Virus record (IMG/VR): IMGVR_UViG_3300021963_000022
Source of the DNA: a virus
Lineage: Duplodnaviria > Caudoviricetes
Strand: one strand, 5' to 3'
Length of the DNA stretch: 64,000 bases
The notes under the pieces are model-generated. The model was not told the origin of the DNA, ran no database searches, and saw only the letters and a list, made by a program, of their open reading frames with translations. This document shows, one piece after another, positions 17,031-56,599 of this stretch (the stretch's first letter is position 1; each line of letters opens with the position of its first letter). A program made the translations under genes and the position numbers.

Positions 17031-18851
17031 ATGGCGGTAGTTGTTGTTTATGGTGGAGGGTTTCAACCCTTTCATGCAGGACATTTGAGCAGTTATGTAG
17101 AGGCTAAACGTGCCTTTCCTGATGCTGAATTCTTTGTTGCCGCCAGCAATGATGTTAAACAACGACCTATTCCTTTTAAAGTAAAGAAGTTTCTAGCACA
17201 ACAAGCAGGTGTTAGAGATGCGTTTGTTGAAGTAAGGCAGCCGCTCAATCCTAAAGAAATTTTAGAAATATTTGACCCTGCAAAAGATATATTTGTATTA
17301 GTACGTAGTGAGCGTGACCCTATGCCATACACTAAAAAAGATGGTAGTCCCGCATACTTCCAACCATTTGTCAGTTTAGACCAATGTAATCCATATGGTA
17401 AAAATGCTTATGTACTAGTCACAAAGAAAAAAGATTTTACTGTTAATGGTCAAGAAGTATATTCTGGATCACAAGTACGTGACATGTATACTAATGCAGA
17501 CGATGTAAATAAAGAACAAATCATTAGTCAGTTATATCCTAAGAGTAGCCACAAAGATACAATCAAACAAGTTTTGGATCAATATTTGCAATCTACACCT
17601 AAAACAGTTTTGGAGCCCAAAGTGCCAGCAGCTAAACAATTAAAGAATAAGAAACTAGCAGAGATGATTAAACAAGCTAGACCTTTACTAAAAGAAGCAT
17701 CAATTGAAAAGAAAGTAAAGTTTCTTAAGTTGTTAAAAGATTATGCAATAACAAATATAGAAGAAGCAGTTAGTCCTACGTATGGTGACGTAATTAAAAC
17801 ACGTAATAAGATAGCACAACAAACTAATCCTACTCGTAATAAGTTTATATGGAAACGTCCTAATCAGATCCGTGGTAGTTATACTGACCAACAATTAATT
17901 TCACAAGGTTTTCGTAAATCAGCACAAAACAATCTATGGGGCGGTACACAAGAAATGTGGGATCGTTTATCAGAATCATTGAATGAATTTGCCCCACCAA
18001 GTAGAGATGACGGCGGTGGCGAGAATGATAGAAATCGTAGAATAAGAAAACTATTAGAAATTGCCATACAAGTAGCAAAAGAAAAAAATGTCGATGAATT
18101 GGGTATGATACATGCTATGAATATGATAGCAGGTGATGAATTTTTTAATACAGCAGTTGAAGGTATATTACCTGATATAACAGATAAAGAATATATGTTT
18201 GTGCTACAAAGTGCTTATAAAACAGTAAAGCAAGGTTTAGCAGAAGCAAAGAAAAAAAGAAAAAAGAAAAGTAAAAACCGTAGTATTGGAAGATATTTCT
18301 TTCCAGGATATAATTACTACGGTGGCGGCAGTGGAGAATCTGGTGAGAGTGGAGGAGATGGCGGCGGTGAAGGTGTGGCGGAAGGCTCCTTAAACGAACT
18401 TGCACCAGGTGGGAATGGTGGCGACGGAGGAGATGACAGATATATCCCGCCAAATTTTGGTAAGCCCTACGCGGCAAAATATCTAGGCAAGAATGAATTT
18501 GAAGTATTTTGCCGCCCGGATAATGATCCATCTAAAGTGATTAAGTTACGAGCCATCGTTCAAAAATATGGTTTAGAATTTGATGATGACAACTATGATG
18601 AAGAAACTGGCGAAGGCGGCCGATGGTATTTAGACAGTCCCGGTGCTGTATGGCTTGGTTGGCAATATGGTGAAATCCCATTACCTAAGGCCATTGATCA
18701 AGTACGTAATCCAGGACATATTCACGATTTAGTTACCGACTATCTTACCAATGCACATAATTTTGAGATACAAAAAATAGCAATAGAATATTTTGGTTTT
18801 ACTACAGATGGTGAAATGAATGAATCTGTGGATTATTTAGACGAGAAATAA
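17031..18851 (+). CDS. Mosaic protein: N-terminal HxGH nucleotidyl/cytidylyltransferase-like domain plus several short unrelated modules
   Basis: VYGGGFQPFHAGH motif; later modules are separated by LLKEA, NIEEA, LSESLNEF, GLAEA, GVAEGSLNEL and EMNES. Confidence 0.7.
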   Translation: MAVVVVYGGGFQPFHAGHLSSYVEAKRAFPDAEFFVAASNDVKQRPIPFKVKKFLAQQAGVRDAFVEVRQPLNPKEILEIFDPAKDIFVLVRSERDPMPYTKKDGSPAYFQPFVSLDQCNPYGKNAYVLVTKKKDFTVNGQEVYSGSQVRDMYTNADDVNKEQIISQLYPKSSHKDTIKQVLDQYLQSTPKTVLEPKVPAAKQLKNKKLAEMIKQARPLLKEASIEKKVKFLKLLKDYAITNIEEAVSPTYGDVIKTRNKIAQQTNPTRNKFIWKRPNQIRGSYTDQQLISQGFRKSAQNNLWGGTQEMWDRLSESLNEFAPPSRDDGGGENDRNRRIRKLLEIAIQVAKEKNVDELGMIHAMNMIAGDEFFNTAVEGILPDITDKEYMFVLQSAYKTVKQGLAEAKKKRKKKSKNRSIGRYFFPGYNYYGGGSGESGESGGDGGGEGVAEGSLNELAPGGNGGDGGDDRYIPPNFGKPYAAKYLGKNEFEVFCRPDNDPSKVIKLRAIVQKYGLEFDDDNYDEETGEGGRWYLDSPGAVWLGWQYGEIPLPKAIDQVRNPGHIHDLVTDYLTNAHNFEIQKIAIEYFGFTTDGEMNESVDYLDEK

Positions 18852-18877
18852 AAATATTTCGGGCCCCTCTTTATAGT

Positions 18878-19920: not shown

Positions 19921-19928
19921 AATAAATA
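19921..19928 (+). promoter_or_regulatory. T4-late-like promoter AATAAATA
   Basis: 4 nt before ATG 19933, no SD. Confidence 0.5.
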
Positions 19929-19932
19929 CTAT

Positions 19933-21375
19933 ATGCAGTTAAACGAACTAGATAATTTCAGCCTCAGCGATGCGGTCTTCTTTCATGACGAGTTAAATCC
20001 CGCTATATTTGCCGGTGACCATATGAAATACGATGTTAGAGAACAACTATTACATATTGCTGAAGACTTTGTAGAACATCTTGGCATACCGAATATAGAC
20101 ATAGTAGACATTACTATATCAGGTAGTAGTGCAGCCTATTCGTATACAAAATACAGCGATATTGACCTACATATTCTAGTTGACATGAACAAATTCTCCG
20201 ATGATGATGTATATCGTGAACTATTTGATGCTAAAAAAGTCGTATATAATGACCAACACGATATTGTTATTAACGGATATGAAGTAGAGTTATACGTACA
20301 AGATACAAATCAGCCTGTAATTAGTTTAGGTGAGTATTCAGTAATGAATGACAAGTGGATCAAACTTCCTAGAAAACGTAGAGCACATTTAGATCAGGCT
20401 GCTACTAAAGCCAAGTTTGAGAAGTTATATAAGTTATCAGAATATGCTGTAAAATCTAAAAATTTAGAAAAGATAAGACAAGTATTAAAGACAATTAAGA
20501 AGTATAGACAAGCAGGATTAGATGTTCATGGGGAGTTTGGTCCTGAGAATTTAGCATTTAAAGCAATACGTAGTAAAGGTATAATAAAGCATCTATATAA
20601 TATGGTAGATGAATTGCATAGTAAACAGTTAAGCATACCTGAGAGTAAATTGTTAGGTCAACTAGATGAAATCATTGACATGCCTCCAGTAAAAAAACGA
20701 TTGGATATAGAATCAATGTATAATGATTTACAGTACAAAATTAGATACCATGAAGCCAGTGAATTAACTTCAATAAAATTTTCAATGAAAAATCGTGTAT
20801 TTCGTGATGGAGATCATGGATTAAAATTTTTCTTATTTAATAAAGATAAACCAGTCTTTTATCTTGGTATAAGTAAATTCCATGATGGATTTAAAACAGG
20901 TGCGGTTGCTAGTAGTCCTGAAGTACAGGGTCAGGGTTTAGGTTGGAAATTATATAAAGCTGTTAGTGAGTATCTAAATGTACCGTTATATAGTGACAGC
21001 ACACAAACACCTGACAGTAAGAACGGCATTTGGCAGAAATTGATTCAAAATTATCCTAAGCAAGTTATAGGATATAATCAAATATTGCGTAGAAATGTTC
21101 CTATTAATAACATATATCAAACATTGCCTCAAGATCAATTAAAAGATATAGAGGATGATACTAGAAAAAATACATTATTATTAAAGTTATTGCCCATAGC
21201 AGTAACAGATATGTATGAGGCATCAGGTTATATCCCTAGTGAAGGTGAAAAGAACGACCCTAGATGGGAACGTGCATTAAGTATAGATGTGCATCCAGAT
21301 ACAATGAAAAAGCAGGCTAAGAAATTCGGTTGGAAGATTAGTCGTGCCGGAATTCCCCCATTGCTAAGAAAATAA
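19933..21375 (+). CDS. Mosaic protein: Pol-beta-superfamily nucleotidyltransferase + GNAT-like module + short C-terminal module
   Basis: ITISGSSAAY...SDIDLHILVD (GS/DxD); SPEVQGQGLGWKLY (acetyl-CoA motif A); junctions GQLDE|I and DMYE|A. Confidence 0.7.
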   Translation: MQLNELDNFSLSDAVFFHDELNPAIFAGDHMKYDVREQLLHIAEDFVEHLGIPNIDIVDITISGSSAAYSYTKYSDIDLHILVDMNKFSDDDVYRELFDAKKVVYNDQHDIVINGYEVELYVQDTNQPVISLGEYSVMNDKWIKLPRKRRAHLDQAATKAKFEKLYKLSEYAVKSKNLEKIRQVLKTIKKYRQAGLDVHGEFGPENLAFKAIRSKGIIKHLYNMVDELHSKQLSIPESKLLGQLDEIIDMPPVKKRLDIESMYNDLQYKIRYHEASELTSIKFSMKNRVFRDGDHGLKFFLFNKDKPVFYLGISKFHDGFKTGAVASSPEVQGQGLGWKLYKAVSEYLNVPLYSDSTQTPDSKNGIWQKLIQNYPKQVIGYNQILRRNVPINNIYQTLPQDQLKDIEDDTRKNTLLLKLLPIAVTDMYEASGYIPSEGEKNDPRWERALSIDVHPDTMKKQAKKFGWKISRAGIPPLLRK

Positions 21376-26934: not shown

Positions 26935-29679
26935 ATGAAAATATCAAAATTATTAGAAAATCCTACCCCGTCAAGCACTAGTGACCTTAATGGAGGCGGC
27001 TTCGGTGGTCAAGCTCCTCGTTTTGGTCGTGATCCTGAAATATTAGAAGATGAGCAAATTGATGAAACAACCGCTGGCTCAACAGGAACAGGATCTGTGG
27101 GTGGAGGAGTTGCTACAGATTTAGGTATGCAACGTAGAAGTAAAGGTAGCATATTTCAAGGTGTAAGAACAAGTAAGAAGTTTGTTAATTCTCCAGTAAC
27201 AGAAGATCCATTAAAAGATAAATCATTGGATGCACTAAGTCAAGCAAAAAATGTTATTGCTCAAAAGCGTATGGCTGATTTAGAGCAATGGGAAAAAGAA
27301 TTCAAACAAAGCATGGTTAATAAACTTAAACAAAAGCCATCATTTGAACCAGTTCCAGTAAGTCAGCCCGGTGAAAAGCATTCTGTATTAAAGTCTAGAA
27401 TGTCTAATTTAGATATGGCTATTCAAAAACATCAACAAGTTGAAGCATTGGCACAAAAACTTGATAAGGTAGGAAGACTATCACCCGCAATACAATCTGC
27501 AATAGATACACGTATGCATATTAAACTTGGTCCCAAAGATAACTATCAAACATTGAATAGAAAACTTGACAGTATAATAGAGATGTTAAATAAAAATCTA
27601 AACACTTACAAAATTGCACGTAAGAAACCAAAAAAAATGCGTGAAGATGGCATAACAGCAGGTATTAATAAGTATTATGACGATAGAGCTAGTGGAGCAC
27701 TTGATCCTAGAACTGGACAAAAACAACCATACTTGCAACAATGGGCATTAAAAGTTAACGGTAAAGTAGATGGTAGTAACATCTTTAGAAGTGAACAGGC
27801 TGCAATGCTAGCAAGGTCTGCTCTTTTAAGAAAAAATCCTAATGTGCAGATTGGACTTGTAACTAGAGGTGGATTAGCCGAAGCTGATATGAATCGTAGA
27901 GATTTTATAAAAGGTGTGGGTGCGGTAGCCGCAACTGGTGCTACCGATCAAGCACAACCAACTCAAAGACAAGATTTAGGAAATAGTTTTTCTACAGCAG
28001 TAGTAGAGATTGGTGGAGTACCATTTAATGTTGTACTAGATACAGTAAGTAAATCTATCTACATGTTGAATCAAAAAAGTGATGGCACTCCTCTTGTTAA
28101 TAAGCCAGGATCATTTATCGTAATAAGGAATGGTAAATTAGAACCTAGAATGGACCTTGCTCCAAATATTATGAACGCATTACAAAAAGCAGGCTTACTA
28201 GATAAACAACAAGGTGTAAGAGAAGGTGTTAGAGATTTAGGATATGACGCACAATCTTTAATAATGAAACTACGTAGAGATGTTGAAGAAAGAAGACTAC
28301 AACCAACTAGAGAAGCAGTGTTGTCTGCGGCAAGAGAACTAGCCGGTGATATGGACTTTGCTCCTGAACTATTAGTTCGTCAAGTGTTAGGTCAAAGTGT
28401 GACGGAAGAATTCAACGGCGAATACGATGACGAAGCAGGTATGGCTGACAACAATCTTGAAACATTGCGCCGTGCTGTAGATGGTATTGATAATGTTATT
28501 GACTCAGGTGACAACTTACCTGAATGGTGCCAAGAAAAGATTGCTGTAGCTAAATCAATGTTGGTTACCGTTTGGGATTACATGAAATCTGAAGAAGAAC
28601 GTAATGGTGGTGAAAAAATTGATGAAGGTTGGGTAAAAAATGCTATAGCAAGTGCAACATTAGCTGGTGCCGCTCTTGGTGCAGGCAATGCACAAGCCGC
28701 TGACTTAGGTGGATATAATACTCAATATCTACAGGGTGTAGTGTCTGGACAAGTAGCACGACCAATGATAAGTGTAGATGCCGCTAGACAAGAATTACAA
28801 GCACGTGCTAATGGTAAGACACAAACACAAGCTCCTGCTAATACAAATGTTGCACCTCAACAGGGAACTAATCAAACTCCAAATTTAAGTGCTTACGAAA
28901 CTCGATATCTACAAGGTGTAGTGTTGGGTAAAGTACCGAGACCAACGGTAAGTGTAGATGCCGCTAGACAAGAATTACAGTTACGTGCTAGTAGTACACA
29001 ATCAGATGTTAATACTATTTCATCTCGTTGGGGTTCTAATCAACCCAACAATGCAAACGTTATTACTTCACGTGGAGTACAACGTGAAGGTATGAATGAT
29101 AATCCTAAAGTAGATTTAAGTCCTAACTATCCTAACTATTCAAAATTAGTTGGTGAATTCATTGGAATGAAAAATAATAGAGCAAGATTTTTAATTATAG
29201 ATGCTGAACTTAAACCAGGTGTACGTGAGACTGAAAAAATCTTTAGGGCTAGGACAACTAACACTCCAATCAGTATTGAAATAAGTAAAGTACGTAATCG
29301 TAACGTAGTAGAGGGTGAGTTAAGCGAAGAAAGTTTGTTAGCAAAAGAACTAGCTAATCAATTTAAATTGTTTAATAAAGCAAATGACCGTGACTTAAGT
29401 GGTAAGCCAGAAGATAGAGAAATAATAGCAAAAGAAGCGGCTCATGTACCTGGAATGGTAGATCGTATTGAAAATCAAATTACAACAAAGATAGCTAAAG
29501 AGCACCCTGAAATTATACAACAATATGGTAAACAGATTGTACAAGATGCTATTTCAAGCATTGCAGTATATCATAGACACATGAGAGAAGTAACTCCAGC
29601 TAATATAGATGATATGGTTAATGAAATCATACAACAGTTGGATAGACATTTACATATGAGAGAAGATGAAAATAGTTGA
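26935..29679 (+). CDS. Large mosaic protein (914 aa), candidate processed internal-head polyprotein
   Basis: No single recognisable fold; about 12 hydrophobic-x-E|(G/A/D/E/N/T) junctions; internal duplication. Confidence 0.7.
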   Translation: MKISKLLENPTPSSTSDLNGGGFGGQAPRFGRDPEILEDEQIDETTAGSTGTGSVGGGVATDLGMQRRSKGSIFQGVRTSKKFVNSPVTEDPLKDKSLDALSQAKNVIAQKRMADLEQWEKEFKQSMVNKLKQKPSFEPVPVSQPGEKHSVLKSRMSNLDMAIQKHQQVEALAQKLDKVGRLSPAIQSAIDTRMHIKLGPKDNYQTLNRKLDSIIEMLNKNLNTYKIARKKPKKMREDGITAGINKYYDDRASGALDPRTGQKQPYLQQWALKVNGKVDGSNIFRSEQAAMLARSALLRKNPNVQIGLVTRGGLAEADMNRRDFIKGVGAVAATGATDQAQPTQRQDLGNSFSTAVVEIGGVPFNVVLDTVSKSIYMLNQKSDGTPLVNKPGSFIVIRNGKLEPRMDLAPNIMNALQKAGLLDKQQGVREGVRDLGYDAQSLIMKLRRDVEERRLQPTREAVLSAARELAGDMDFAPELLVRQVLGQSVTEEFNGEYDDEAGMADNNLETLRRAVDGIDNVIDSGDNLPEWCQEKIAVAKSMLVTVWDYMKSEEERNGGEKIDEGWVKNAIASATLAGAALGAGNAQAADLGGYNTQYLQGVVSGQVARPMISVDAARQELQARANGKTQTQAPANTNVAPQQGTNQTPNLSAYETRYLQGVVLGKVPRPTVSVDAARQELQLRASSTQSDVNTISSRWGSNQPNNANVITSRGVQREGMNDNPKVDLSPNYPNYSKLVGEFIGMKNNRARFLIIDAELKPGVRETEKIFRARTTNTPISIEISKVRNRNVVEGELSEESLLAKELANQFKLFNKANDRDLSGKPEDREIIAKEAAHVPGMVDRIENQITTKIAKEHPEIIQQYGKQIVQDAISSIAVYHRHMREVTPANIDDMVNEIIQQLDRHLHMREDENS
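28769..28979 (+). repeat. 31-bp exact direct repeat, 180 bp apart, within a duplicated peptide
   Basis: TAAGTGTAGATGCCGCTAGACAAGAATTACA at 28769-28799 and 28949-28979 (SVDAARQELQ). Confidence 0.9.
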
Positions 29680-32320: not shown

Positions 32321-33094
32321 ATGAGAGCATCAGAACTAGAAGAATCCGCCGCCGATGAGTTGAAACGTAAACTCCCAAGTCTTAACAAGACTGATTACTC
32401 AACCATCGACCACTTAATGAAACGTATCAGTAAGCGTTTTAACATTAGTGGTAAAAAACTACATGACTTGTTCGTTAGCAAGTACGGTGAAACACCTGAT
32501 CATTGGATTAAAAAATACAAAGATAAGTTAGATGAGGCACAACTTGCAGGAAATCCTATATATGTAATATATGTTGACGGTAAACCAGCAACAAAATATG
32601 TTGATTCTAATGAAGCAAAACAAGACCTTCAATTACTAAAAAACAAGTTTCCTAATAAAACTTTTGTAATAAAACAACAAAATGATACGACTCCAGGTGG
32701 TACTAATCTTATAGGTGAAGGTGTTGAATCGTCTGACGATGAACAAAAGATTAAAGATTTTATTGAATGGTCTTATAAAAAAGTAAACTTACAAAAGCCT
32801 TATCCCAAGTTTACATTCAGTAGAAATACAGAAGAAGCACAAGAAGGTCATCACACCGGTCGTCATACGCACGACGGTGAAAACAGTCAAATATGGGTGT
32901 ATATTGAGAATCGAAATCTAGTAGATATATTCAGAACTATATTCCATGAGATTGTACATGAAAGACAAATGCAACTTAATATGATTGGTCCTGATGATAG
33001 TTATCCAGGAAGTCCCGTTGAAGCAATGGCTGACATGATGGCTGGCAAATATATCAAAATCTACGGTAAAGAGCATCCTGAGATATTCCAATGA
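32321..33094 (+). CDS. Mosaic protein with C-terminal HExxH (zincin-like) module
   Basis: Leader MRASELEE|S; junctions KLDE|A and LIGE|G; TIFHEIVHERQ. Confidence 0.65.
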   Translation: MRASELEESAADELKRKLPSLNKTDYSTIDHLMKRISKRFNISGKKLHDLFVSKYGETPDHWIKKYKDKLDEAQLAGNPIYVIYVDGKPATKYVDSNEAKQDLQLLKNKFPNKTFVIKQQNDTTPGGTNLIGEGVESSDDEQKIKDFIEWSYKKVNLQKPYPKFTFSRNTEEAQEGHHTGRHTHDGENSQIWVYIENRNLVDIFRTIFHEIVHERQMQLNMIGPDDSYPGSPVEAMADMMAGKYIKIYGKEHPEIFQ

Positions 33095-34365
33095 GAGCTA
33101 GAGAGTTTTTAATAGAATATAACAGAAACACCATGGTAAAAATGATGGGTAAGCAATTACTCAAATCATTTGCTCAGGGTAATGATATTAGATTAGCAAA
33201 TCAACCTCAATTCAGAACACCCGAGAATACATATGATACTAATAAAATGGTTGACTTTGTATTAGCAACATTAGAACAAGCTGACCCTACAACAAACAAA
33301 ATATATACTCCATGGTTAGCACGTGAGTATGTTAAAACTAATATAAAAAGATTAGAAGATGCATCAGCACACGCAACTCCTGCACTATCATTATACGATA
33401 CTTATAAAAGAAGCGGTGCGTTCCCTAGTGAATACAAAGATATCATGCGTATCACGTATAATCAATTGCTTACTTTTATCAGATCATATGATGCACCACC
33501 TACAGAGTTAAAAGATAAGGGTCGATCAACACAAGTTTATAGTGATAGTGAAGTACGTGTTATTGTACCAGAAGATCAAACTGCCGCATGTTATTATGGT
33601 CAAGGAACTCGTTGGTGTACAGCGGCTACTAGGGGTACTAACTATTTCAATCAATACTCACGTCAGGGTAAATTGTATATATTGCTTCCAACTAATCCAA
33701 GAGATGAAGGTGAAAAGTATCAATTACATTTTGAATCAGATCAGTTTATGGATAAAGAAGATGACCCAGTAGATATTGGTTGGTTATTAAGAACTCGTTT
33801 CCCTAGTCTACTTCCATTCTTTTTAAAAAATGAACCTGAATTAAAAACGTTTGTTGTTTTTAGTGACAATGCTATATTAGAAAAGGTCGGTAAACAGATA
33901 CATGACTTTGCTATGGACCGTGTAAATGAAATTATGATGGATTGGGAAACTGATGATGAAAGTTTTCGTGATTGGCAAACAGAACAAGCAATTAACAAAG
34001 GTTATGTTGATGCAGAAGGTAATATAGATTGGGATTTAGTACATGACGATGATTCCATTAACAACTATAGTGATTACAACTATGAAGTTAAAGACTTCTA
34101 CAAACAAATGGATAGAGCATTAAGCGTCAGTCCTGCTGAAATGCGTGATATGGCAGCAGGTGTAGAACAATACCTGGATAATGGTCCACTTAAAATTACT
34201 GAGTTAGATAGTATATACGAAACTGAGCTTGAAGAAACTTTTGGAAAAACAAGGGGCGGTGGTAGTAATGACTATGGTATAGGTGATTGGATAATGGAAC
34301 ACCTACAAGTTCAAAAAGATGGAACGGTCAAATTCTGGCCTGGATCTAAACATACACAAAGTTAA
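33091..34365 (+). CDS. Hypothetical protein with capsid-targeting-like leader
   Basis: MRAREFLIE|Y; central CYYGQGTRWCTAA motif. Confidence 0.65.
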   Translation: MRAREFLIEYNRNTMVKMMGKQLLKSFAQGNDIRLANQPQFRTPENTYDTNKMVDFVLATLEQADPTTNKIYTPWLAREYVKTNIKRLEDASAHATPALSLYDTYKRSGAFPSEYKDIMRITYNQLLTFIRSYDAPPTELKDKGRSTQVYSDSEVRVIVPEDQTAACYYGQGTRWCTAATRGTNYFNQYSRQGKLYILLPTNPRDEGEKYQLHFESDQFMDKEDDPVDIGWLLRTRFPSLLPFFLKNEPELKTFVVFSDNAILEKVGKQIHDFAMDRVNEIMMDWETDDESFRDWQTEQAINKGYVDAEGNIDWDLVHDDDSINNYSDYNYEVKDFYKQMDRALSVSPAEMRDMAAGVEQYLDNGPLKITELDSIYETELEETFGKTRGGGSNDYGIGDWIMEHLQVQKDGTVKFWPGSKHTQS

Positions 34366-47712: not shown

Positions 47713-47722
47713 TTAACAAAAC

Positions 47723-47914: not shown

Positions 47915-47917
47915 TAT

Positions 47918-48124
47918 ATGAACAAAAAAATCAAAGAACTAGCAGAACAATGCGGTTTTAGACCAGGTGATAGCATATACGATAGAAATCAATCATTTGA
48001 TATTGAGAAGTTTGCAGAACTTCTAATCAGAGATTGTGCAAAGCAAGTTAATCACATTTACAAACAAGGTGGCGGCACATGGGGTGAAGTCATTCTTAAA
48101 ACTTACAATATAAAAATCAAATGA
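47918..48124 (+). CDS. Small phage protein of the 'IKELAEQ...EKFAELI' family
   Basis: Paralogous to 49546 and 61384. Confidence 0.6.
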   Translation: MNKKIKELAEQCGFRPGDSIYDRNQSFDIEKFAELLIRDCAKQVNHIYKQGGGTWGEVILKTYNIKIK

Positions 48125-48969
48125 GTCATTTAAAAGTAGCAGAATTATTTTATAGCATTCAAGGTGAAGGTAGATACATGGGTGTACCTTCAGTATTTCT
48201 CAGAACATTTGGCTGTAACTTCAAGTGTGCTGGATTTGGTATGCCTAAAGGTGAACTAAGTCGTGAGGTAGAAGACATTGCCGCACGTTCACATTACTAT
48301 GATGATTATAAGAAACTTCCTTTAGTTTCTACAGGTTGTGACAGTTATGCAAGTTGGGATCCTAGATTTAAACATCTTAGTCCTGTACTAACAACAGATA
48401 GTATTGTAGATAGCATTATGGATATGATTCCGCACAAACGTTGGATGGATGAGCATCTTGTTATTACAGGCGGTGAACCTTTATTAGGTTGGCAACGTGC
48501 TTATCCTGACTTGCTTTCACATGAAAAGATGAGGAGTCTTAAAGAGATTACATTTGAAACAAATGGTACTCAAGAACTAAGCCAAGACTTTTCAATATAT
48601 CTACAACAGTGGAAGATAAACAGAGAAAAAAATGCACTTACCTTTAGTGTAAGTCCTAAACTAAGCATCAGTGGTGAGAAGTGGGAAGAAGCTATTCGCC
48701 CTGAGATTATTCATCAATATGAAAGTGTTGGCTTTGTTTATCTCAAGTTTGTTATTGCTACTAAAGAGGATGCACTTGAAGCTGATGACGCAGTAAAAGA
48801 GTTTCGTAGTAGAGGATTCAGAGGTCCTGTATACTTTATGCCATGCGGTGGTGTAGAGTCTGTGTACAACTTGAATGCAAAGAATGTAGCAATTGAAGCA
48901 ATGAATCGTGGTTATCGTTACAGTGATAGACTACAAGTACCTTTATTTAAGAATGAGTGGGGTACATGA
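48121..48969 (+). CDS. queE: 7-carboxy-7-deazaguanine synthase (radical SAM)
   Basis: VAELFYSIQGEG, VFLRTFGCN, GCDS, VITGGEPLL, FETNGT, SVSPKL, RLQV. Confidence 0.9.
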   Translation: MSHLKVAELFYSIQGEGRYMGVPSVFLRTFGCNFKCAGFGMPKGELSREVEDIAARSHYYDDYKKLPLVSTGCDSYASWDPRFKHLSPVLTTDSIVDSIMDMIPHKRWMDEHLVITGGEPLLGWQRAYPDLLSHEKMRSLKEITFETNGTQELSQDFSIYLQQWKINREKNALTFSVSPKLSISGEKWEEAIRPEIIHQYESVGFVYLKFVIATKEDALEADDAVKEFRSRGFRGPVYFMPCGGVESVYNLNAKNVAIEAMNRGYRYSDRLQVPLFKNEWGT

Positions 48970-49151
48970 TGGCACAAATAGTAATTACAAGAACACAGTT
49001 TGAAAAACTGAAAGAAGTATTTGAGATGTATGATCTTGATAGAGTGATTTGGACAGAAGATTCAACTAATGGTATAGGTTCAACTACTACCATTGAGTTT
49101 GATCCTAAATCTACTGTTAAGATGGATATTACTGATTTAGAAAGTTGGTAA
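48966..49151 (+). CDS. Hypothetical protein
   Basis: Overlapping stop/start in the operon. Confidence 0.55.
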   Translation: MMAQIVITRTQFEKLKEVFEMYDLDRVIWTEDSTNGIGSTTTIEFDPKSTVKMDITDLESW

Positions 49152-49375
49152 TGCCATTAGATCAAGTTCAATCATATGACTATTTCTATGAAAAAATAAT
49201 AGGTACTGAACTTAAGTTTGCTTGGTTACCACAAACTTGTGATATATCGGGTAAGCGTATTTGGTTTAAATGGGGCTATCGCATTACTAGAATTATTACA
49301 GGTCCGGGCGAATCTATCTTTGAATATAGATGGCATGAAAAGAATACCCATATTATATGGAAGCTAACGAGGTAA
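49151..49375 (+). CDS. Hypothetical protein
   Basis: FAWLPQTCDISGKRIW motif. Confidence 0.55.
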   Translation: MPLDQVQSYDYFYEKIIGTELKFAWLPQTCDISGKRIWFKWGYRITRIITGPGESIFEYRWHEKNTHIIWKLTR

Positions 49376-49379
49376 ATAT

Positions 49380-49553
49380 ATGTATGAATTAAGATATCTT
49401 GTCCGAAAAGGTTGGGACGGACTAGAAAAAGTGTTACAATATAGAACACAAATTGAAGTAACTGATTATAGTACAACCACTGATAAAGGTAGTTTTACTA
49501 AAAAACGTGAATGGACTGAATGGAAAGATGTACCGGTAGTAAAAGATGAATGA
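49380..49553 (+). CDS. Small hypothetical protein (57 aa, not in track)
   Basis: MYELRYLVRKGWDGLEKVLQYRT...WTEWKDVPVVKDE; GAGG SD. Confidence 0.6.
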   Translation: MYELRYLVRKGWDGLEKVLQYRTQIEVTDYSTTTDKGSFTKKREWTEWKDVPVVKDE

Positions 49554-49767
49554 TAAACTAAAAGAACTGGTAGCGGAATGCTACAATCCTTATTCAGACT
49601 TTGATTATGAAAAGTTTGCTAATCTAATTATTGAAGATGTACTCAGTATTATGGGTGACCCTAAAAACTATAACAGATGCACATATACTAATTTTGATTT
49701 AAATACCGCTTTGTGTATATCAACAGAACTATCTGATAAAATTAAAAAACTTTATGAGAACGTATGA
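49546..49767 (+). CDS. Small phage protein of the 'LKELV...EKFANLI' family
   Basis: Paralogous to 47918. Confidence 0.55.
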   Translation: MNDKLKELVAECYNPYSDFDYEKFANLIIEDVLSIMGDPKNYNRCTYTNFDLNTALCISTELSDKIKKLYENV

Positions 49768-51088
49768 TAAACGTATTGGCTTCTTAGTAAGCTATCAAAC
49801 ACTTATCCCGCACGGGGGTATAGGTCAATTTGCTAAAAGCTTTTGTGAATTGATGGATAAGCACAATATCAAAGTTGATATCATTACTGATAAAGAACCC
49901 AAAGATAATGAGTTTGTCAAATCACTTAAAGCAAACATAATTGCTCCCACTGATTCACTATCATATACTACTCATAGTAATATCTTTATGTACGGTGATA
50001 CATTTTGCTATGAAAGAATGGCTAACTTTCGTAATAGTATCATTAAAGCATTAGAGCATAACTTGTATGATGCATTTGTATGCAACACCTACGAAACTGT
50101 ACAAGTAGCAAGCACTATGGGACTTGAAGATTGTATTCAAATCATTGCTTATACACACTTAGAAAGTCAAATCTTTAACGATACTAAAAATCCTTTTTTA
50201 AACAATACCAATGTGATGATGCGTCAACAATTAAGCACAACAAACATTGATATAGGAACTCAAAGTAAATTTAATCAAGTACACTTAGATGAATCATCCT
50301 ATCATCTTCCTATACCTATTACTGAGCGTGGATTGCTTGAAGAACATCACAAACAACGTGAAGGTATACTATTTGTCGGTCGTTGGGAAGAAGGTAAAAA
50401 TCCTGAGTTGTTCTTAGACTTGATTGAACAAACAAAGTTGCCTGCAAAAGTAATGACTAGTGCAAACGGTGCAAAGAAGTTTGAAGATAGACTAAAGAAG
50501 ATCGGTGTACCATATGAAATCAAAGTGGGCATCATCGGTAAAGAGAAAGTTGACTTTATGACAAGTGCTAGAATTTCATTCAACCCTAGCATTGTTGAGA
50601 GTTATGGTATGGCATTCTACGAACAACATATTCAAATGCCTACATTAGTATTAGAGAATCAGCGTTGGACTAATAACTTTAATAAAGATTTCTTTTACAC
50701 TTGCACTAGGAAAGATATGGCAAGTAAAGCAAAAGAGTTGTATGATATTTTTGAAAAAGCAGAAAGATGGTATAACTTAGGATCATTGAAACACGCACAA
50801 GAACAAGAAGCTACAGTCTTTCACAAATGGAATACATGCTTTAATGATTTTGAGCCTAAACAATCCAACAGCAATACTGCTAAAATTTTACAAAATGAAA
50901 CCATTAAGTATAATGATTTTATTGAAGGATTGGGACGTAGTATAATTTGTATTGATGACTGCCGTTCTGCATTGACTAATAAACATAAGTTTCGTACAAT
51001 CTATACAGATGAAGATACTTACTTAACAAAGGATCCTAGCTTTGAACCAGTTGAAGAAACAAGTCAATCGCTATTTACATTCGCATGA
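49754..51088 (+). CDS. GT-B fold glycosyltransferase (GT4-like)
   Basis: PHGGIGQF, ILFVGRWEEGKNPE, FNPSIVESYGMAFYE. Confidence 0.8.
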   Translation: MRTYDKRIGFLVSYQTLIPHGGIGQFAKSFCELMDKHNIKVDIITDKEPKDNEFVKSLKANIIAPTDSLSYTTHSNIFMYGDTFCYERMANFRNSIIKALEHNLYDAFVCNTYETVQVASTMGLEDCIQIIAYTHLESQIFNDTKNPFLNNTNVMMRQQLSTTNIDIGTQSKFNQVHLDESSYHLPIPITERGLLEEHHKQREGILFVGRWEEGKNPELFLDLIEQTKLPAKVMTSANGAKKFEDRLKKIGVPYEIKVGIIGKEKVDFMTSARISFNPSIVESYGMAFYEQHIQMPTLVLENQRWTNNFNKDFFYTCTRKDMASKAKELYDIFEKAERWYNLGSLKHAQEQEATVFHKWNTCFNDFEPKQSNSNTAKILQNETIKYNDFIEGLGRSIICIDDCRSALTNKHKFRTIYTDEDTYLTKDPSFEPVEETSQSLFTFA

Positions 51089-51930
51089 AAAAAGTTTTAA
51101 TTACAGGTAGTTCAGGATATATCGGTTCACATCTATGTAAGATGCTAGCCGGTAAATACGAAGTTCATGGACTTGATATTAATCCACCACAAACATTTGT
51201 AGATAAATTCTATGACCAAAACATCAATCGACTATTTGAAGCTGAACACGAATATGATGCAGTAATTCATTTGGCTGCATTGGTTCGTGTAGGTGAGAGT
51301 GAACTTATGCCAATCAAGTATTATATTACTAACTTGAATGGTACTATGAACATACTTAATCGTGTGAAAACAAAAAACTTTATCTTTGCTAGTACTGGTG
51401 CCGCACAAGATTGTACTAGTGCCTATGGTATCAGTAAACTTGCCGCTGAAGGTGTTGTTAAAGAATTCTCTACTCACCATCGTCAACAAGATTATACTAT
51501 TTTTAGATTCTATAATGTTGTAGGCAGTGATGGGTTTCCACCAACAAACCCAGATGGATTAATGTATAAACTGTTTGAAGCGACCGACACAGGAGTATTT
51601 ACTATCTATGGTAATGACTATACAGAATCAACTGACGGTACATGTGTCAGAGACTATGTTCATGTGAATGAAATATGTGAAGCTTTGAAAGAAGCTATTG
51701 AAAACCCATCTAATCAAATAGAATGTTTAGGGCATGGTGTTGGTCATACAGTTAAAGAGATTGTTAATAAGTTTCAACAAGTTAATAATGTTGATTTTGA
51801 AGTGACGTACGGCCCAAGAAGAAAGGGTGACTTACCTAGTTCTGTACTAGAAAATGTATCACCCTATATGCGTAATCTCTATACAATGGATCAGTTACTT
51901 ACCTTTAGCGTCCCGGAAAAAACTGAGTAA
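51085..51930 (+). CDS. NAD-dependent nucleotide-sugar epimerase/dehydratase (GalE-like)
   Basis: ITGSSGYIGSH, HLAA, ASTG, YGISK (YxxxK), FRFYNV, VRDYVHV. Confidence 0.9.
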   Translation: MKKVLITGSSGYIGSHLCKMLAGKYEVHGLDINPPQTFVDKFYDQNINRLFEAEHEYDAVIHLAALVRVGESELMPIKYYITNLNGTMNILNRVKTKNFIFASTGAAQDCTSAYGISKLAAEGVVKEFSTHHRQQDYTIFRFYNVVGSDGFPPTNPDGLMYKLFEATDTGVFTIYGNDYTESTDGTCVRDYVHVNEICEALKEAIENPSNQIECLGHGVGHTVKEIVNKFQQVNNVDFEVTYGPRRKGDLPSSVLENVSPYMRNLYTMDQLLTFSVPEKTE

Positions 51931-53419
51931 AGAAATTACTATTAGCACCTGCATCGATGATAACAGGTTTACCTTGATATAATCCCCAGTTTGCTTTTCT
52001 ATTAAGATCACCTAACTCAACCTCATATGATGAACTTAAATCAACCAACTTGTTTGCGTATTCATTAGCAGTGTCAATCTGTTCTTCTGACTTGCCTTTC
52101 TTCTTCATATGAGCAATCAATTGTTGATAATTATATAGTTTACTCTTACCAGACATTGCAGTAGCCAATTGAACTATTTCATTTAATGAATCAACACCCA
52201 TCAGTTCAGCAAGTTGTTTCTCAGTAGCTTTTTGTGCTAACTCAGTGTGTATCCAAGTAGGTTCACGATTCTGTTTATCATAGTCAATCATAGGTATTAG
52301 TATACCAAGCTGACTAGCATATCCATCATCCAGTATATCTACTTCTACATTGTTTTGTACTAAACCCATTCTATTTTTAGCTATTTTAAGAACAGTAGGA
52401 CGACCTTCATATTCAATATCAGTAGCAATACGACTAGATCCACTACCAATACGTTTAGCACGTTCTAATGCATAACCTAGTCGTTGTTTGAATGTAGAGC
52501 CAGGGCTATATTGACTTGCATCCCAATCAGCTGGTAAGGGTGCTTCAGTTATTTCATTGTTCGTTTTTACGATAGGAGGAACCCAGTTGTATAGTTCTAT
52601 TCGTGGTGCACCGGATTCATCGTGATAATAATTCGCTTTAAACGAACCATCATATTTAATAACGTTTTGAATTTCTTTTGGATTGCCACCTGTTAATCTC
52701 TTAAATGCATCTATTGCTTTTTGTTTTGTTAAGCCAACTTTAGTGTCACCGGTATCACCAATCGGCAAGATTAAGCCATCAGGTGTAACACTCCATAATG
52801 TATATCCATCTGGATTGTCTCTCCTTGCTACTATTTGAACTTCATTTGGCTTATAGTAATTTTTAGAATTCAATGGTGGTTTAGCTAACTTACGTGAGAA
52901 CGTGCCTTTATTAGTAGGATCATCTCTCATTGTAGTTAATTCTAAACCACTATCATTAATCAATTTCAATAGACCTTCTGGTACTTTATTCATTAGTTCT
53001 TTACGTATCTGTATGCCTAAAACATATGGTTTCTTAACAGGGATACCTATACCTCTTGGATGATAGATACGTTCTTCTGTTTCTTGTTTATACATTGGAT
53101 TACTAGCAGTAGGACCAGTACCGTCTGCTTGATTATAGAATTGCATATAAGAGAATGGCATTACTTTGAATCCAGCTTGACGTAATGCATTCCTATCTAA
53201 CACAAGTTGAATACTGCCACCACCATATGGGAATCTATAATATTGATTTCTACTTGCACTGATTACTGGTATTTCCCAACCACCTTCTTCATCTGTATCA
53301 GATAAGTGCGGTTGTATTACACCTTTTCTGAGTATATTCCAGATTTGATTAGGTTGTGCTACACTATGATAAATGTAATCGCCACCAACTGCTTCAGCAA
53401 TAAATTCTTTTGCTCTCAT
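51905..53419 (-). CDS. Mosaic protein: N-terminal ADP-ribosyltransferase-like domain + C-terminal protein-kinase-like domain
   Basis: YIYHS...ILRKG...ISASR...ETEERI; after ITE|A come GSGSSR, VLKIAK, QNNVE, GDLNRKANWG and VIIDAG. Confidence 0.65.
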   Translation of the reverse strand: MRAKEFIAEAVGGDYIYHSVAQPNQIWNILRKGVIQPHLSDTDEEGGWEIPVISASRNQYYRFPYGGGSIQLVLDRNALRQAGFKVMPFSYMQFYNQADGTGPTASNPMYKQETEERIYHPRGIGIPVKKPYVLGIQIRKELMNKVPEGLLKLINDSGLELTTMRDDPTNKGTFSRKLAKPPLNSKNYYKPNEVQIVARRDNPDGYTLWSVTPDGLILPIGDTGDTKVGLTKQKAIDAFKRLTGGNPKEIQNVIKYDGSFKANYYHDESGAPRIELYNWVPPIVKTNNEITEAPLPADWDASQYSPGSTFKQRLGYALERAKRIGSGSSRIATDIEYEGRPTVLKIAKNRMGLVQNNVEVDILDDGYASQLGILIPMIDYDKQNREPTWIHTELAQKATEKQLAELMGVDSLNEIVQLATAMSGKSKLYNYQQLIAHMKKKGKSEEQIDTANEYANKLVDLSSSYEVELGDLNRKANWGLYQGKPVIIDAGANSNFFTQFFPGR

Positions 53420-53901
53420 TTTCTATTTAGTAAATAAGGACTGTTAAGTAATTTTGGAAACCAAGGAACATCTTCATAGTCTTTTAATATATTTCTTCTG
53501 TTTGGATTAAAATAGAAACCCTTTATCTTACCACGAACTGGCATAGAACCTTTAGGTACAACAATTACTTCTTCATATTCATCACCAAATGTTTGTGTAC
53601 CTTGACTAGAACTAAACATTTTATATTGATTAGCAATAGAAGGTCTATCCAATACAAGAATTACTGCATTACCATCATATGTTAGATTTAAATTATCAAT
53701 AAATTCATCTGATTCAGCATAATGCCTCGAACGAGTTGTACTAATTGTGGGAGCATTGGTTCTTGCTATAGTTGCTTGTTGAGGACGATAGCTTGCTTTT
53801 AATAAGCCCTTGTCTAGTATATGCAACATTGCCGCTGGTTGCGTAGCATGATAAAGATAATCATTACCCACTGCTTCTACTATGAACTCACTTGCTCTCA
53901 T
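53416..53901 (-). CDS. ADP-ribosyltransferase-like small protein
   Basis: YLYHAT...ILDKGLL...ISTTRS...DEYEEVIV; paralogous to the N-terminus of the adjacent gene. Confidence 0.6.
   Translation of the reverse strand: MRASEFIVEAVGNDYLYHATQPAAMLHILDKGLLKASYRPQQATIARTNAPTISTTRSRHYAESDEFIDNLNLTYDGNAVILVLDRPSIANQYKMFSSSQGTQTFGDEYEEVIVVPKGSMPVRGKIKGFYFNPNRRNILKDYEDVPWFPKLLNSPYLLNRK
53424..53430 (-). promoter_or_regulatory. T4-late-like motif CTAAATA
   Basis: 4 nt upstream of ATG 53419 on the minus strand. Confidence 0.45.
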
Positions 53902-55649
53902 TAGTGCTTCAATAGTAAGGTAGACAACACATCCTGTCTGTTAGCACTGATATCACCCTCACCTGGAGCAATGATAACGTTCCATTTCTTAATGTTGTTC
54001 TTCTCAGGAATGGACATCATTTCACTATAGCTGATGATGCTTTCTCGTTTTAGATTATATTGATTTGCTAATCTATCTTTTAATTCTTCTAGTGCTGCAC
54101 CATCACGTGGTTGCCATGCACCGTCTTCAGTCTTGTCTAAGTTACCCTTCTCATCTTTCTTCAATAAGTCATAGAACAACTTACTTGGAACAATACGACT
54201 ATTCTTAGTTATATCTAATTGAGGATCTTGTTGTTTAACTTGTTTCTCTTGGCTTGTGCTTGCACCTTCACTCCAATTAACAATAAAGTTACTTGGTTTT
54301 TGACCTAATGCCGCATCTGCTATCTTTGTGTAAGCATAAAACTTAACATCAGGGTGTGCTGCCGCTAGCTTAAACGCTAGGTCTTGATATTCTGGACTGA
54401 AGAAATCACCAGCATCATGCCAACGAATAGTTAGATTGTAACCACCTTTTTGTGCTTTCTTTTCTTCTTTTGTAATATCACTACTTAGTTGATTAAAGAA
54501 TCCATCAGGATCATTCAACAAGAAAGTTAAAATTCTTCCATCACTTAACCAAGGACCTTCAAACTGAACTTTACCGCCCTTCATAGCAAAGCAATCTATT
54601 TTGCATGAACCAGCACCTGGACATGTATTAACTACAATTAGTTCATTAGTGTTTTCATCTAGTGCTATACCAACTAGAGCGGCAAAACCAATATTATAGA
54701 ATTGCTCTAGTTCACCGTTACTATGTTTCATCTTCTCATTTTGTTTAAGAAGTTTAGCTGGACGAACACCTAATGCTTGTTTGATTTTATCAGTATCGTA
54801 TTTCTTACCTTCTTCATTGTAGTATTTGACTACACTTGAACGGTGAATATATGGTAGTTTATATTTGTCTGTCTTACCTTTTTCACGATTACGAATTCTA
54901 TCTAAGTAGTCATCTAGTTCTTGACCTTTTAGTTCACGTGTTTGCGCAGGTAGTTTTGTTGCTTCATCTAAGTCTCGATATTTCTGTCTAAATTCTTTTA
55001 CTGCTAACTGAGTTAGTCCCTCTACTGTGTGGAGTAATGCTTCTCTTGAAGCCTCTGGGAATCTATCCATTACAAATTGTGATATACTATTAGCCCATAA
55101 ATACGTTTTTTGGTCATTGTAAAAATCTTGAGGTGTTGGCAACGAAACATAATAATGTTTATTGTTTTTATATTCTTTCCATAATCTTGCATACTGAGAA
55201 GTATCAAGTGGCCCTGTAACTTTACTCATCATACGCTGAAAAGCAAGTTGGTCGTCCTTTGTTTTGATTATTTTTTTACCTAAGACTCTTAATACAATTG
55301 ATTTTAATTTATTGTATGCATCACCCATAAAGCCTTCGTCTACTTCTTGTTTATGATTTGTAGATTGTTTACTACGTTTATCACTATCAGGAAACATTAT
55401 AGAAATGCTTTTACTATAAGCCTTATCAATTGAGTCGGGATTTAATTTTTTAATTTTATTATTTCTAGCATCACTAGTATAATGTGCTAATTGTTCAGGA
55501 GACATTTTATCTAATTCTTCTGAGGACATCTCATCTATCTTTTCGTCATTAGATTGGGCAAGGAATTGATCCATGCTCATTACTTTAATACCCTTAGTTG
55601 CTCCGGGTAATTTGGGTGTTGCACCTTCAAACAATTCTTGGAAATTCAT
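53901..55649 (-). CDS. Mosaic protein with C-terminal 'gene product 88'-like (Fe-S / radical-SAM-like) domain
   Basis: Start MNFQELFE|G (ATGA overlap at 55646-55649); NTCPGAGSCKIDCFA, IRWHDAGDF, FYAYTK. Confidence 0.65.
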   Translation of the reverse strand: MNFQELFEGATPKLPGATKGIKVMSMDQFLAQSNDEKIDEMSSEELDKMSPEQLAHYTSDARNNKIKKLNPDSIDKAYSKSISIMFPDSDKRSKQSTNHKQEVDEGFMGDAYNKLKSIVLRVLGKKIIKTKDDQLAFQRMMSKVTGPLDTSQYARLWKEYKNNKHYYVSLPTPQDFYNDQKTYLWANSISQFVMDRFPEASREALLHTVEGLTQLAVKEFRQKYRDLDEATKLPAQTRELKGQELDDYLDRIRNREKGKTDKYKLPYIHRSSVVKYYNEEGKKYDTDKIKQALGVRPAKLLKQNEKMKHSNGELEQFYNIGFAALVGIALDENTNELIVVNTCPGAGSCKIDCFAMKGGKVQFEGPWLSDGRILTFLLNDPDGFFNQLSSDITKEEKKAQKGGYNLTIRWHDAGDFFSPEYQDLAFKLAAAHPDVKFYAYTKIADAALGQKPSNFIVNWSEGASTSQEKQVKQQDPQLDITKNSRIVPSKLFYDLLKKDEKGNLDKTEDGAWQPRDGAALEELKDRLANQYNLKRESIISYSEMMSIPEKNNIKKWNVIIAPGEGDISANRQDVLSTLLLKH

Positions 55650-56599
55650 TTCTTGAGGTTCCTGATTTTTTGTTCTGCAATCATTACTAGTTCTTGCATT
55701 TGTTGAATAGATTCGCAGTTCCATCTACGTAGTGCTTTATTGATTGGACTATCAGGATCACGTTTAGTTTTAGCACTTGCATGTGCTTTCTTCATGCCTC
55801 CCATTCTAGCACAGAATGATTTGCGACGGTTAGCGGCTTTGCTGCCTTTTTTGAGTTTACTAGGCTTTGTAGTTACGGCAGTCTTTAGTTTACTACCTGG
55901 ATTTTCTCTACGATATGATTTAACAGCTTTACTACTCATGCCGTCAGTCTTGTCACTCTTGTTGACTTTCTGCCAGTCTTCATCTATACTCATGTCTTGA
56001 TACATTGGTCTACCTAATGATCGATTAATTAAATACGTCTGAGCATCTTTAAGGCTGTTATGCTTCATTTGTTTTATAAATTTACCAACTTTTCTTCTAG
56101 TTGTAAAGGGAGGTTGACCTGTCTGACTATATATGTGTCCTATTTTTTGACCATTGTGTATAAATTCATAATCTTTCCATGGGTCTTTTGCTTCAGCTAA
56201 ACCTTGCTGGCCATACATGTCAAGTATTTGTTTAACATAGAAATTATAAAAACCACGACGGTCATTATATTCTCTGTCCCCTAGAACAGTTTTTAATGCT
56301 AGTATAGCATCACTTATTTCAGGGCCCTTCATTATTTTTAATGCGTCGGTAACAAGCGAATCAACACGTTGTGAGCCTTCTGCTACACCTTGTTCTTTTT
56401 TTGCAATGGCAATAGCAGCCTGTCGTTTAGGATTAGCATCTTCAGTTGCGGCATCTTTAAAATTCTGTGCAGAAGGTGCTCCCTTGCTACCAGGTTTACG
56501 CATCTTTTCGCCCGAACCACGCTTGATACGGGCACGTTTAGCGTGAATGTTTGCCCATAAACCTTTTTCACCTTCAGTTATAATTTCTGTAAATTTCAT
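55646..56599 (-). CDS. Mosaic basic protein (several short modules)
   Basis: MKFTEIITE|G; modules KGLWANIHAKRARIKRGSGEKMRKPGSKGAP and DWQKVNKSDKTDG...RRKSFCARMGGM...KALRRWNC; junctions GVAEG, GLAEA and SIDED. Confidence 0.7.
   Translation of the reverse strand: MKFTEIITEGEKGLWANIHAKRARIKRGSGEKMRKPGSKGAPSAQNFKDAATEDANPKRQAAIAIAKKEQGVAEGSQRVDSLVTDALKIMKGPEISDAILALKTVLGDREYNDRRGFYNFYVKQILDMYGQQGLAEAKDPWKDYEFIHNGQKIGHIYSQTGQPPFTTRRKVGKFIKQMKHNSLKDAQTYLINRSLGRPMYQDMSIDEDWQKVNKSDKTDGMSSKAVKSYRRENPGSKLKTAVTTKPSKLKKGSKAANRRKSFCARMGGMKKAHASAKTKRDPDSPINKALRRWNCESIQQMQELVMIAEQKIRNLKK

Follow-up and report, generated by a model that had tools for sequence, protein, structure and literature searches.

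Leader- and linker-bearing late proteins of an uncultured T4-superfamily jumbo phage as candidate head cargo

Introduction

The capsid-targeting sequence (CTS) has been established as a general device for loading proteins into phage heads (PMC9026906). In T4, the first 10 residues of IPIII are enough for packaging, residues 4 and 7 being involved in targeting and residues 8 and 10 in cleavage (PMC9026906). The T4 record gives the cut sites as MKTYQEFIAE↓A in IPII and IPIII, MAKINELLRE↓S in gp24, MELITELFDE↓D in Alt, MLKEQLIAE↓A in gp22 and SFLTE↓A in gp23 (the arrow marks a cut, observed here and predicted below). Multi-domain, probably packaged "polyvalent proteins" have also been described (PMC5512222). 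Here we analyse nine proteins encoded between positions 17031 and 56599 of a 64,000-nucleotide stretch of Caudoviricetes DNA (IMG/VR record IMGVR_UViG_3300021963_000022; hereafter the window). Most of these proteins carry short Glu-ending linkers or sites between unrelated modules, and seven of the nine begin with a leader that resembles the T4 CTS. We lean towards the reading that these late genes encode head-internal cargo which would be packed into the head, cut apart and injected with the DNA. A preliminary description of the window, which had rightly quoted MKTYQEFIAE as the start of IPII and IPIII, took this to be an undescribed architecture. That claim stands in part: CTS loading and probably packaged polyvalent proteins are known, and no account of the linker-delimited form turned up in the literature searched.

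The window comes from an uncultured jumbo phage that belongs to the T4 superfamily. Its family-B DNA polymerase shows 42–49% identity to those of Sinorhizobium phage Phosso, Xanthomonas phage XaC1, Vibrio phage 2.275.O, Agrobacterium phage Atu_ph07 and Klebsiella phage RaK2, and a megablast search of the polymerase gene against cultured phages gave no match. In IMG/VR, an exact 40-mer taken from the window had no match either. Many IMG/VR contigs carry this polymerase at 86–91% identity. Among them is the 524,565-bp contig IMGVR_UViG_3300027749_002876 (hereafter G001), whose polymerase is 89% identical to that of the window.

N-terminal leaders

Translation bears out all seven leaders that the preliminary description had placed at gene starts (Table 1). 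When the 64 kb were scanned in six frames with the leader pattern, eight matches were obtained, namely these seven gene starts and one internal position. The start codon at 55649 overlaps the preceding stop as ATGA, the G001 homologue begins at the same Met (MNFKELYE), and tblastn agrees with this start. The leader-bearing proteins of the window are alike only in the leader, except for two paralogous ADP-ribosyltransferase (ART)-like domains (E 1e-10), and the leader codons show no conservation beyond the amino-acid level. Seven window genes thus have a short propeptide that ends in hydrophobic-x-Glu and is common to otherwise unrelated late proteins.

The leader consensus in the relatives is M-(R/K)-x-x-E-(F/I)-x-x-E. 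In two unrelated cargo families 207 of 240 relatives begin with a leader, and a sequence logo shows E5 and E9 to be invariant in the 192 relatives that have the M-x-x-x-E-x-x-x-E spacing. The 317-amino-acid (aa) protein has more than 8000 relatives in a metagenomic protein collection, with a common leader and QGVAEG linker, and most of the 120 inspected start with M-(R/K)-(F/I/A)-(T/N)-E-(I/F)-(I/L)-(T/S)-E. In the family of the 504-aa protein, which is unrelated to it, 108 of 120 relatives begin with MRAxEFxTE and are followed by differing partner domains (GNAT, HD, M48/U49 peptidase, NUDIX).

The motif ATAAATA, which we take to resemble the T4 late promoter TATAAATA, is rarer than expected in the window as a whole (17 vs 35 copies). 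It is found just 5′ of the genes for the 480-, 914-, 257- and 317-aa proteins and of the 16530–17031 operon (Table 1). At the level of this motif, these units appear to be transcribed late.

Two further occurrences of leader-like N-termini have been observed. A 179-aa open reading frame (ORF) of the window, at 11538–12077 (+) and absent from the earlier list, has the short leader-like start MRKIINE↓T. In Alishewanella phage vB_AspM_Slicko01 (OQ508956.1), five consecutive genes (56–3609) have an MK..LYES.LE-type leader, and they include three ART-like paralogs and one kinase-like module. Slicko01 is a cultured phage well suited for testing the hypothesis.

Linkers and module boundaries

Every linker named in the preliminary description is present in the window proteins. 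The strict form, G[LVI][AR]E[GA], occurs six times in the nine candidates (4245 aa; 0.1 expected from shuffles), spread over three of them, with a single further copy among the 16,449 aa outside the candidates. For the loose form, [LIVM]xE[GASD], the count is 32 (15.9 ± 3.8 expected), or 7.5 per 1000 aa in the candidates vs 4.1, in a candidate set that was picked by the motif itself. The enrichment asked of the motif was found for the strict form and, about twofold overall, for the loose form, the latter being weak protein by protein (z ≤ 2.5, with an epimerase reaching an equal score). Because the set was chosen by motif and the enrichment per protein is weak, KIDEG, DLDEA and similar sites are indistinguishable from chance when taken alone; the EITE↓A and DMYE↓A sites are backed by homology boundaries. 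In both leaders and linkers P3 is V, I, L or M, and the hydrophobic-x-E↓small rule that describes the leaders, as well as the scaffold and capsid propeptide of the relatives, also fits the linkers. Many relatives of the 317-aa protein join their modules via (K/Q)-x-(Q/K)-G-V-A-E-G. A 1057-aa protein encoded beside the portal gene of G001 was considered as further support and dropped, its three "strict linkers" lying in Gly-rich, membrane-like stretches of a tape-measure-like protein.

Module boundaries cluster at the sites, as had been proposed. Homology blocks found in different contexts start between −12 and +2 residues from a site in 45.5% of cases vs 13.4% for random positions, figures that are a description and not a probability because the sequences are mutually related. 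The first residue of a module is unchanged between stand-alone genes, where it comes after a leader, and fusions, where it comes after a linker. The junction in front of the ART-like domain reads MRASEFIVE↓AVGNDY in the stand-alone form and QGVGLQE↓GVNDNY in the internal one, and in fusions the domain ends with ...NSPYxxxKQGVAE, which is the stop position of the 161-aa gene of the window. The kinase-like module follows a leader as E↓APLPDDWD in stand-alone genes of Xanthomonas phage XacN1 and of Slicko01 and follows NEITE↓ in the window; in about 100 relatives it is preceded by the conserved junction (V/I)(L/I)DE↓MPLP.

It had also been suggested that modules would be found as stand-alone genes elsewhere, and this is the case for the ART-like, kinase-like and basic modules, which occur in this form in other phages. 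Both basic modules of the 317-aa protein are separate, leaderless genes of 49–84 residues in T7-like marine phages, where they sit among the scaffold, capsid and tail-tube genes of Pelagibacter and Prochlorococcus phages. To our knowledge, T7-like phages have no maturation protease.

In the polyproteins of G001 the window modules, including those of the 914-aa protein, are distributed differently. The 606-aa protein and its G001 homologue (186027–187502, −) are alike only in the N-terminal nucleotidyltransferase domain and in an identical DYLDEK tail (window 18825–18848). The C-terminal module of the 480-aa protein is found in G001 after QPINE↓A, behind quite different middle modules. Some proteins have the linker plus two residues as their C-terminal end, as in ...KQGVAEDN-stop of one relative and ...QQGVAEAQ-stop of G001 (176497–179142, −), which suggests a joint kept ready.

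DUF6321 fusions of 427–490 aa have also been observed in cyanophages S-CREM2 and P-TIM68, in genes that directly adjoin the terminase genes. The DUF6321 module there always follows x-N/D-E↓DWQK, and the P-TIM68 protein begins MDNSNSINE↓S.

Head protease and head proteins of the relatives

G001 has one Peptidase_S77 gene (E 1.9e-27) and a portal gene. Its acidic core protein contains EEQGMVE↓A, its capsid propeptide ends with QLLAE↓S, and its scaffold has 17 (L/I/V/M)-x-E sites in 367 residues. The capsid propeptide of five more relatives shows HLAE↓N, YLKE↓N and similar sequences at the same place. When 601 G001 ORFs were ranked blindly by motif excess, the scaffold came first (z 6.2) and a homologue of the 914-aa polyprotein second (z 4.3). 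In a complex model of the G001 scaffold with a G001 leader protein the partner's own fold was uncertain, and the model speaks neither for nor against binding. Peptidase_S77 is present in XacN1, Slicko01 and five of ten large linker-bearing contigs as well. Three of the five contigs without it are rated 27–48% complete, and the other two (G003 and G005) are discussed below.

Internal export signals of the 914-aa protein

The twin-arginine (Tat) signal of the 914-aa protein begins at residue 317 of 914, so it is not at the translated N-terminus. It has the RR motif, the hydrophobic stretch and the AxA site of such signals, and Pfam TAT_signal (PF10518) scores 27.0 bits (cut-off 22.7) on the excised stretch 27886–28230. 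Three of eight excised pieces score above the PF10518 cut-off, all matching at position 1–2. Relatives of this module were sought by library-wide HMMER searches, in which 44 were found and 18 inspected; a search of viral contigs gave no relative. A twin-arginine signal is present in 16 of the 18, and in all 16 it is internal, never following a Met of its own, and lies 1–3 residues after a Glu junction. About half of these junctions are of the QGVAE type, the rest being ELEE, SIEE, SLEE, NLNE and NVDE. Since the signal becomes N-terminal only if the protein is cut at the junction, this placement argues for real cleavage. The stretch that follows EKIDE↓ in the same protein resembles a Sec signal and has an AQA site.

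Identities of the cargo modules

Among the cargo modules named in the preliminary description, the GNAT domain is sub-threshold, the kinase fold is unproven and HExxH is a motif only. The AlphaFold2 model of the 161-aa ART-like protein has a predicted local distance difference test (pLDDT) score of 84.6. Foldseek relates it to Tpt1/KptA, DarT, PARP and cholera toxin A, its top PDB matches all having the ART fold (E 2.5e-3 upward, probability 0.9–1.0), and in AFDB to DarT (E 8e-5) and Tox-ART-HYD1. On the basis of this model, the N-terminal domains of the 161- and 504-aa proteins are assigned to the ART fold. Conserved segments of the domain, which may hold an H-Y-E or R-S-E catalytic triad, are YH..., STTRS and EYEE, and a tblastn search of the protein against cultured phages gave no match.

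In the C-terminal module of the 504-aa protein, residues K52, E66, D178, N184, D196 and G198 are invariant in 53 sequences, in the spacing of the K, E, D-x5-N and D-x-G motifs of bilobal kinases. Its model has a pLDDT of 63.5, and the Foldseek matches, mostly kinases, are not significant; the invariant motifs suggest a kinase-like module of unproven fold. The N-terminus of the 606-aa protein matches the cytidylyltransferase-like family PF01467 with 22.1 bits (cut-off 21), and the C-terminus of the 317-aa protein is DUF6321 in Pfam. Searching ten excised modules against Pfam gave a single match, the sub-threshold GNAT in the middle of the 480-aa protein (E 0.007). The HExxH at the C-terminus of the 257-aa protein has no Pfam match, and this protein has two leader-bearing homologues in G001. 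For the cargo of the 424-aa protein, PcfJ-like is a lead only (Atlas score 0.87, below evidence level).

Table 1. Coordinates of the nine proteins, their parts and the late-promoter-like motifs in the window
Feature	Position	Strand	Parts and remarks
606-aa leaderless protein	17031..18851	+	N-terminal cytidylyltransferase-like domain 17031-17600; linker QGLAEA 18231-18248; 41-aa basic/Gly-rich peptide; linker EGVAEG 18369-18386; C-terminal module
480-aa protein	19933..21375	+	no canonical leader; nucleotidyltransferase-like domain (phrog_36119); weak GNAT-like middle; junction TDMYE↓A 21205-21222; 50-aa C-terminal module ASGYIPSE...
914-aa polyprotein	26935..29679	+	leader MKISKLLE 26935-26958; linker GGLAEA 27868-27885; Tat signal 27883-27957 directly after it; linker QGVREG 28210-28227; site EKIDE↓G 28612-28629; Sec-like signal with AQA 28627-28698
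257-aa protein	32321..33094	+	leader MRASELEE 32321-32344; 'SAADELKRKLPSL' module; phrog_10346; sites DKLDE↓A, NLIGE↓G; C-terminal HExxH motif 32945-32959
424-aa protein	33091..34365	+	leader MRAREFLIE 33091-33117; one large cargo
504-aa protein	51905..53419	-	leader MRAKEFIAE 53393-53419; ART-like paralog 52985-53392; middle segment; junction NEITE↓A 52541-52558; kinase-like module 51908-52540
161-aa stand-alone cargo	53416..53901	-	leader MRASEFIVE 53875-53901; predicted ART-fold domain
582-aa protein	53901..55649	-	leader MNFQELFE 55626-55649; two N-terminal segments ending QEVDE↓G and RDLDE↓A; GP88 domain (Pfam PF17338, E 2.6e-26)
317-aa polyprotein	55646..56599	-	leader MKFTEIITE 56573-56599; basic 'GLWANIHAKR' module 56447-56572; linker QGVAEG 56375-56392; 'QRVDSLVTDA' module; linker QGLAEA 56189-56206; one more module; junction MSIDE↓D 55976-55993; C-terminal basic DUF6321 module ~55715-55972
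Late-promoter-like ATAAATA	56655..56661	-	heads the minus-strand block of four leader genes
Late-promoter-like ATAAATA, further copies	32307-32313, 26905-26911, 19922-19928, 16499-16505	+	

Conservation of the GVAE linker at the DNA level

The GVAE linker is also conserved as DNA, which had been missed in the preliminary description. In G001 and the window together, 7 of 10 G(V/L/M)AE linkers use GCG for Ala (background 6%); these seven are all GVAE or GMAE, and the three GLAE linkers use other codons. At least 120 viral contigs contain the 17-mer CAAGGTGTGGCGGAAGG, with 161 of 162 copies in frame as QGVAEG, and its spacings under 3 kb are multiples of three in 39 of 39 cases. Among 101 GVAE linkers that had not been selected by the search word, GTG is used in 78% and GCG in 77%, against backgrounds of 18% and 11%. 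The core word is found in the window only in the second linker of the 606-aa protein, EGVAEG, as GGTGTGGCGGAAGG at 18372–18385. The other linkers, including three GLAEA, are in ordinary codons, so the constraint on the GLAEA linkers acts on the protein. The GVAE form, being fixed in rare codons, probably doubles as a recombination joint. The linker is thus under constraint at the protein level and, where it is GVAE, at the DNA level too, and it is most simply read as a cleavage site that probably also serves as an in-frame recombination joint.

The same data bear on an alternative in which a capsid-targeting leader brings about packaging without any cutting at the linkers. The linkers would then act as flexible spacers, retained as joints for in-frame recombination, and the chains would remain intact like uncleaved polyvalent proteins. 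We consider this rather unlikely, even though the codon bias, the frame and spacing of the 17-mer, the redistribution of modules between relatives and the proteins ending in linker plus two residues all speak in its favor, and N4 vRNAP-type polyvalent proteins are packaged unprocessed (PMC5512222). Against it, the linkers match the hydrophobic-x-E↓small rule of the leaders, scaffold and capsid propeptide, and the ordinary codons of the window GLAEA linkers point to a constraint on the protein. The Tat signals that stand just past a Glu junction in every relative showing such a signal are hard to explain without a new N-terminus.

Proposed mechanism and its weighing

In the mechanism that we prefer, the 8–9-residue leader (M-R/K-x-x-E-F/I/L-x-x-E) would act like the T4 capsid-targeting sequence and deliver its protein to the scaffolding core inside the prohead, and a gp21-type prohead protease (Peptidase_S77) would cut the leader off after its last Glu. 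The same protease would cut after the linker Glu, at Q-G-V/L-A-E↓G/A and at looser hydrophobic-x-E↓small sites, so that cutting at each linker would give several free modules from one gene. The free modules, among them an ART-fold enzyme, kinase-like, GP88 and HExxH modules and small very basic peptides, would exit the head with the DNA. In the 914-aa protein, the cuts would expose the Tat signal, and probably also the Sec-type signal, at new N-termini, leading to export of these modules by the host. The rare-codon GVAE linker would probably also serve as an in-frame recombination joint for the swapping of modules.

A wider picture can be drawn from this mechanism, which we regard as possible but doubtful. 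A prohead protease would here produce separately routed effectors from one gene, injected modules would be re-exported to the periplasm via unmasked Tat and Sec signals, and the linker word would be a universal joint with which a large aquatic clade of T4-type phages builds its cargo sets combinatorially.

Several observations weigh against packaging and cleavage as set out here. The 606- and 480-aa proteins have no canonical leader (the latter begins MQLNELDN), and the linkers are thus not strictly bound to the leader, because the former has two strict linkers without one and the latter is also leaderless. No association of leader and strict linker was found in G001 (1 of 15 leader proteins, Fisher p = 0.5), where the large polyproteins start differently, with MS.ILKGLxLNE; the leader pattern used in this comparison was too narrow for them. 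A recombination joint that need not be cut accounts equally well, or better, for the rare-codon word and the ends with linker plus two residues. The gel-band proteome of XacN1 (paper and supplement) does not mention the leader-bearing ORF170. Finally, G003 (rated 99% complete) and G005 (76%) have neither Peptidase_S77 nor a T4-type capsid gene. Because the capsid gene is absent too, these two are unusable as counter-examples; they may be incomplete pieces, or their head genes may be of another kind.

The leaderless proteins are also the starting point of a second alternative, in which the proteins are not head cargo at all. They would be cytoplasmic late polyproteins, either uncut or processed by a different protease, for instance the HExxH module of the 257-aa protein or a host enzyme, and their N-terminus would serve translation initiation, stability or other sorting. 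Embedded zincin peptidases have been proposed as processors of polyvalent proteins (Iyer et al., PMC5512222), and the Tat signal would also fit a module that is exported from the infected cell late in infection. We nevertheless think this improbable. The leader agrees with the experimentally defined T4 CTS at its key positions, and its codons are not conserved beyond the amino acids. Cutting after Glu is the rule of gp21-type enzymes, which act inside proheads (PMC5694885), and the stand-alone forms of two modules lie within capsid gene blocks. A third alternative, that leaders and linkers arise by chance or composition in an AT-rich, Glu- and Lys-rich proteome, draws on the roughly twofold, per-protein weak enrichment of the loose motif and on the choice of the candidates after the motif had been seen, but as a general account it is very improbable, being refuted for the leader and the strict linker by seven of eight six-frame matches at gene starts, six strict linkers where 0.1 are expected and the recurrence of both in thousands of metagenomic proteins, and it stands for single loose sites such as KIDEG.

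If this mechanism holds, the range of pre-made proteins that T4-type phages of lakes and seas put into their hosts would be far larger and more diverse than expected from T4 itself. It would include ART-fold enzymes, modules of kinase-like and acetyltransferase-like type, basic peptides that bind DNA and modules bound for the periplasm. Leader and linker would then be simple tags for listing injected effectors from metagenomes, in which thousands of proteins are already tagged. The linker would also provide a natural and portable design rule by which several cargos from one gene could be loaded and released in T4-based delivery vehicles.

Other features of the window and of G001

The two ends of G001 (about 1–47 kb and 524–486 kb) carry the same ~45-kb gene block in inverted orientation, including a second DNA polymerase. 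These blocks have ~70–90% nucleotide identity to the window, and the protease and capsid genes are each single in G001. The end blocks may stem from an inverted duplication that has since diverged, or the contig may have been assembled as a chimera. A 303-aa repeat-built protein of the window (30278–31189, +; ...NLVSNTGVV..D.TGVGTAR...AAAGYG.DKAIFGYG) has ~15 or more paralogous copies spread over G001, several of them in tandem beside the capsid gene (357.9–361.7 kb). The region 45309–51930 (+) encodes a protein with a QueE-like radical SAM N-terminus (48121), with sugar-handling neighbours (glycosyltransferase-like, epimerase), and these N-termini suggest a 7-deazaguanine-type DNA modification locus.

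Comparison with known systems

The closest described cargo is that of T4, IPI-III and Alt (Mullaney and Black 1996; PMC9026906, PMC3012670). In both, late proteins that are otherwise unrelated begin with a 9–10-residue propeptide whose core is E-F-I-x-E↓, and ART-fold proteins (Alt in T4) and small basic proteins are among the cargo, which is putative here. T4-type head genes including Peptidase_S77 are also common to both, on the present side in the relatives of the window. The T4 proteins are single units that are cut only at their ends, whereas here unrelated modules are chained by a conserved linker that is also fixed as DNA. Some of the modules described here have export signals at their predicted new N-termini, and the mature parts have no sequence similarity to those of T4.

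Polyvalent proteins (Iyer, Burroughs, Anand, de Souza and Aravind 2017; PMC5512222) are similar in combining many effector-type domains in one polypeptide (ART, a zincin-like HExxH motif and GNAT-like, with ParB-like domains in the relatives), in their predicted travel with the DNA and in extensive domain shuffling. They are defined by two to fifteen conflict-type domains per phage polypeptide, and such domains are also combined here (ART fold, GP88, cytidylyltransferase-like, DUF6321). That description involves embedded peptidases and makes no mention of linkers, a leader, or T4-like or jumbo phages. The boundaries in the proteins described here are instead marked by one short motif which fits a prohead protease.

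In the giant phages phiKZ and SPN3US (Thomas et al.; PMC5694885, PMC7411985), many inner head proteins are cut after Glu by a gp21-related protease, often at multiple sites, and propeptides act in targeting, as is proposed here. Their cleavage motif is S/A/G-x-E and their propeptides exceed 100 residues, whereas here P3 is V, L, I or M as in T4 and the leaders have 8–9 residues. The pieces released in these phages are propeptide fragments, and those predicted here are discrete cargo modules.

A short conserved peptide that coincides with conserved DNA at the point where variable modules are exchanged is known from the VENN motif of CdiA and the PxxxxDPxGL motif of Rhs proteins, the Rhs motif also being a cleavage site. 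Those are secreted bacterial toxins with one variable tip, whereas here many modules are chained in a phage protein, for which cutting by the capsid protease is proposed.

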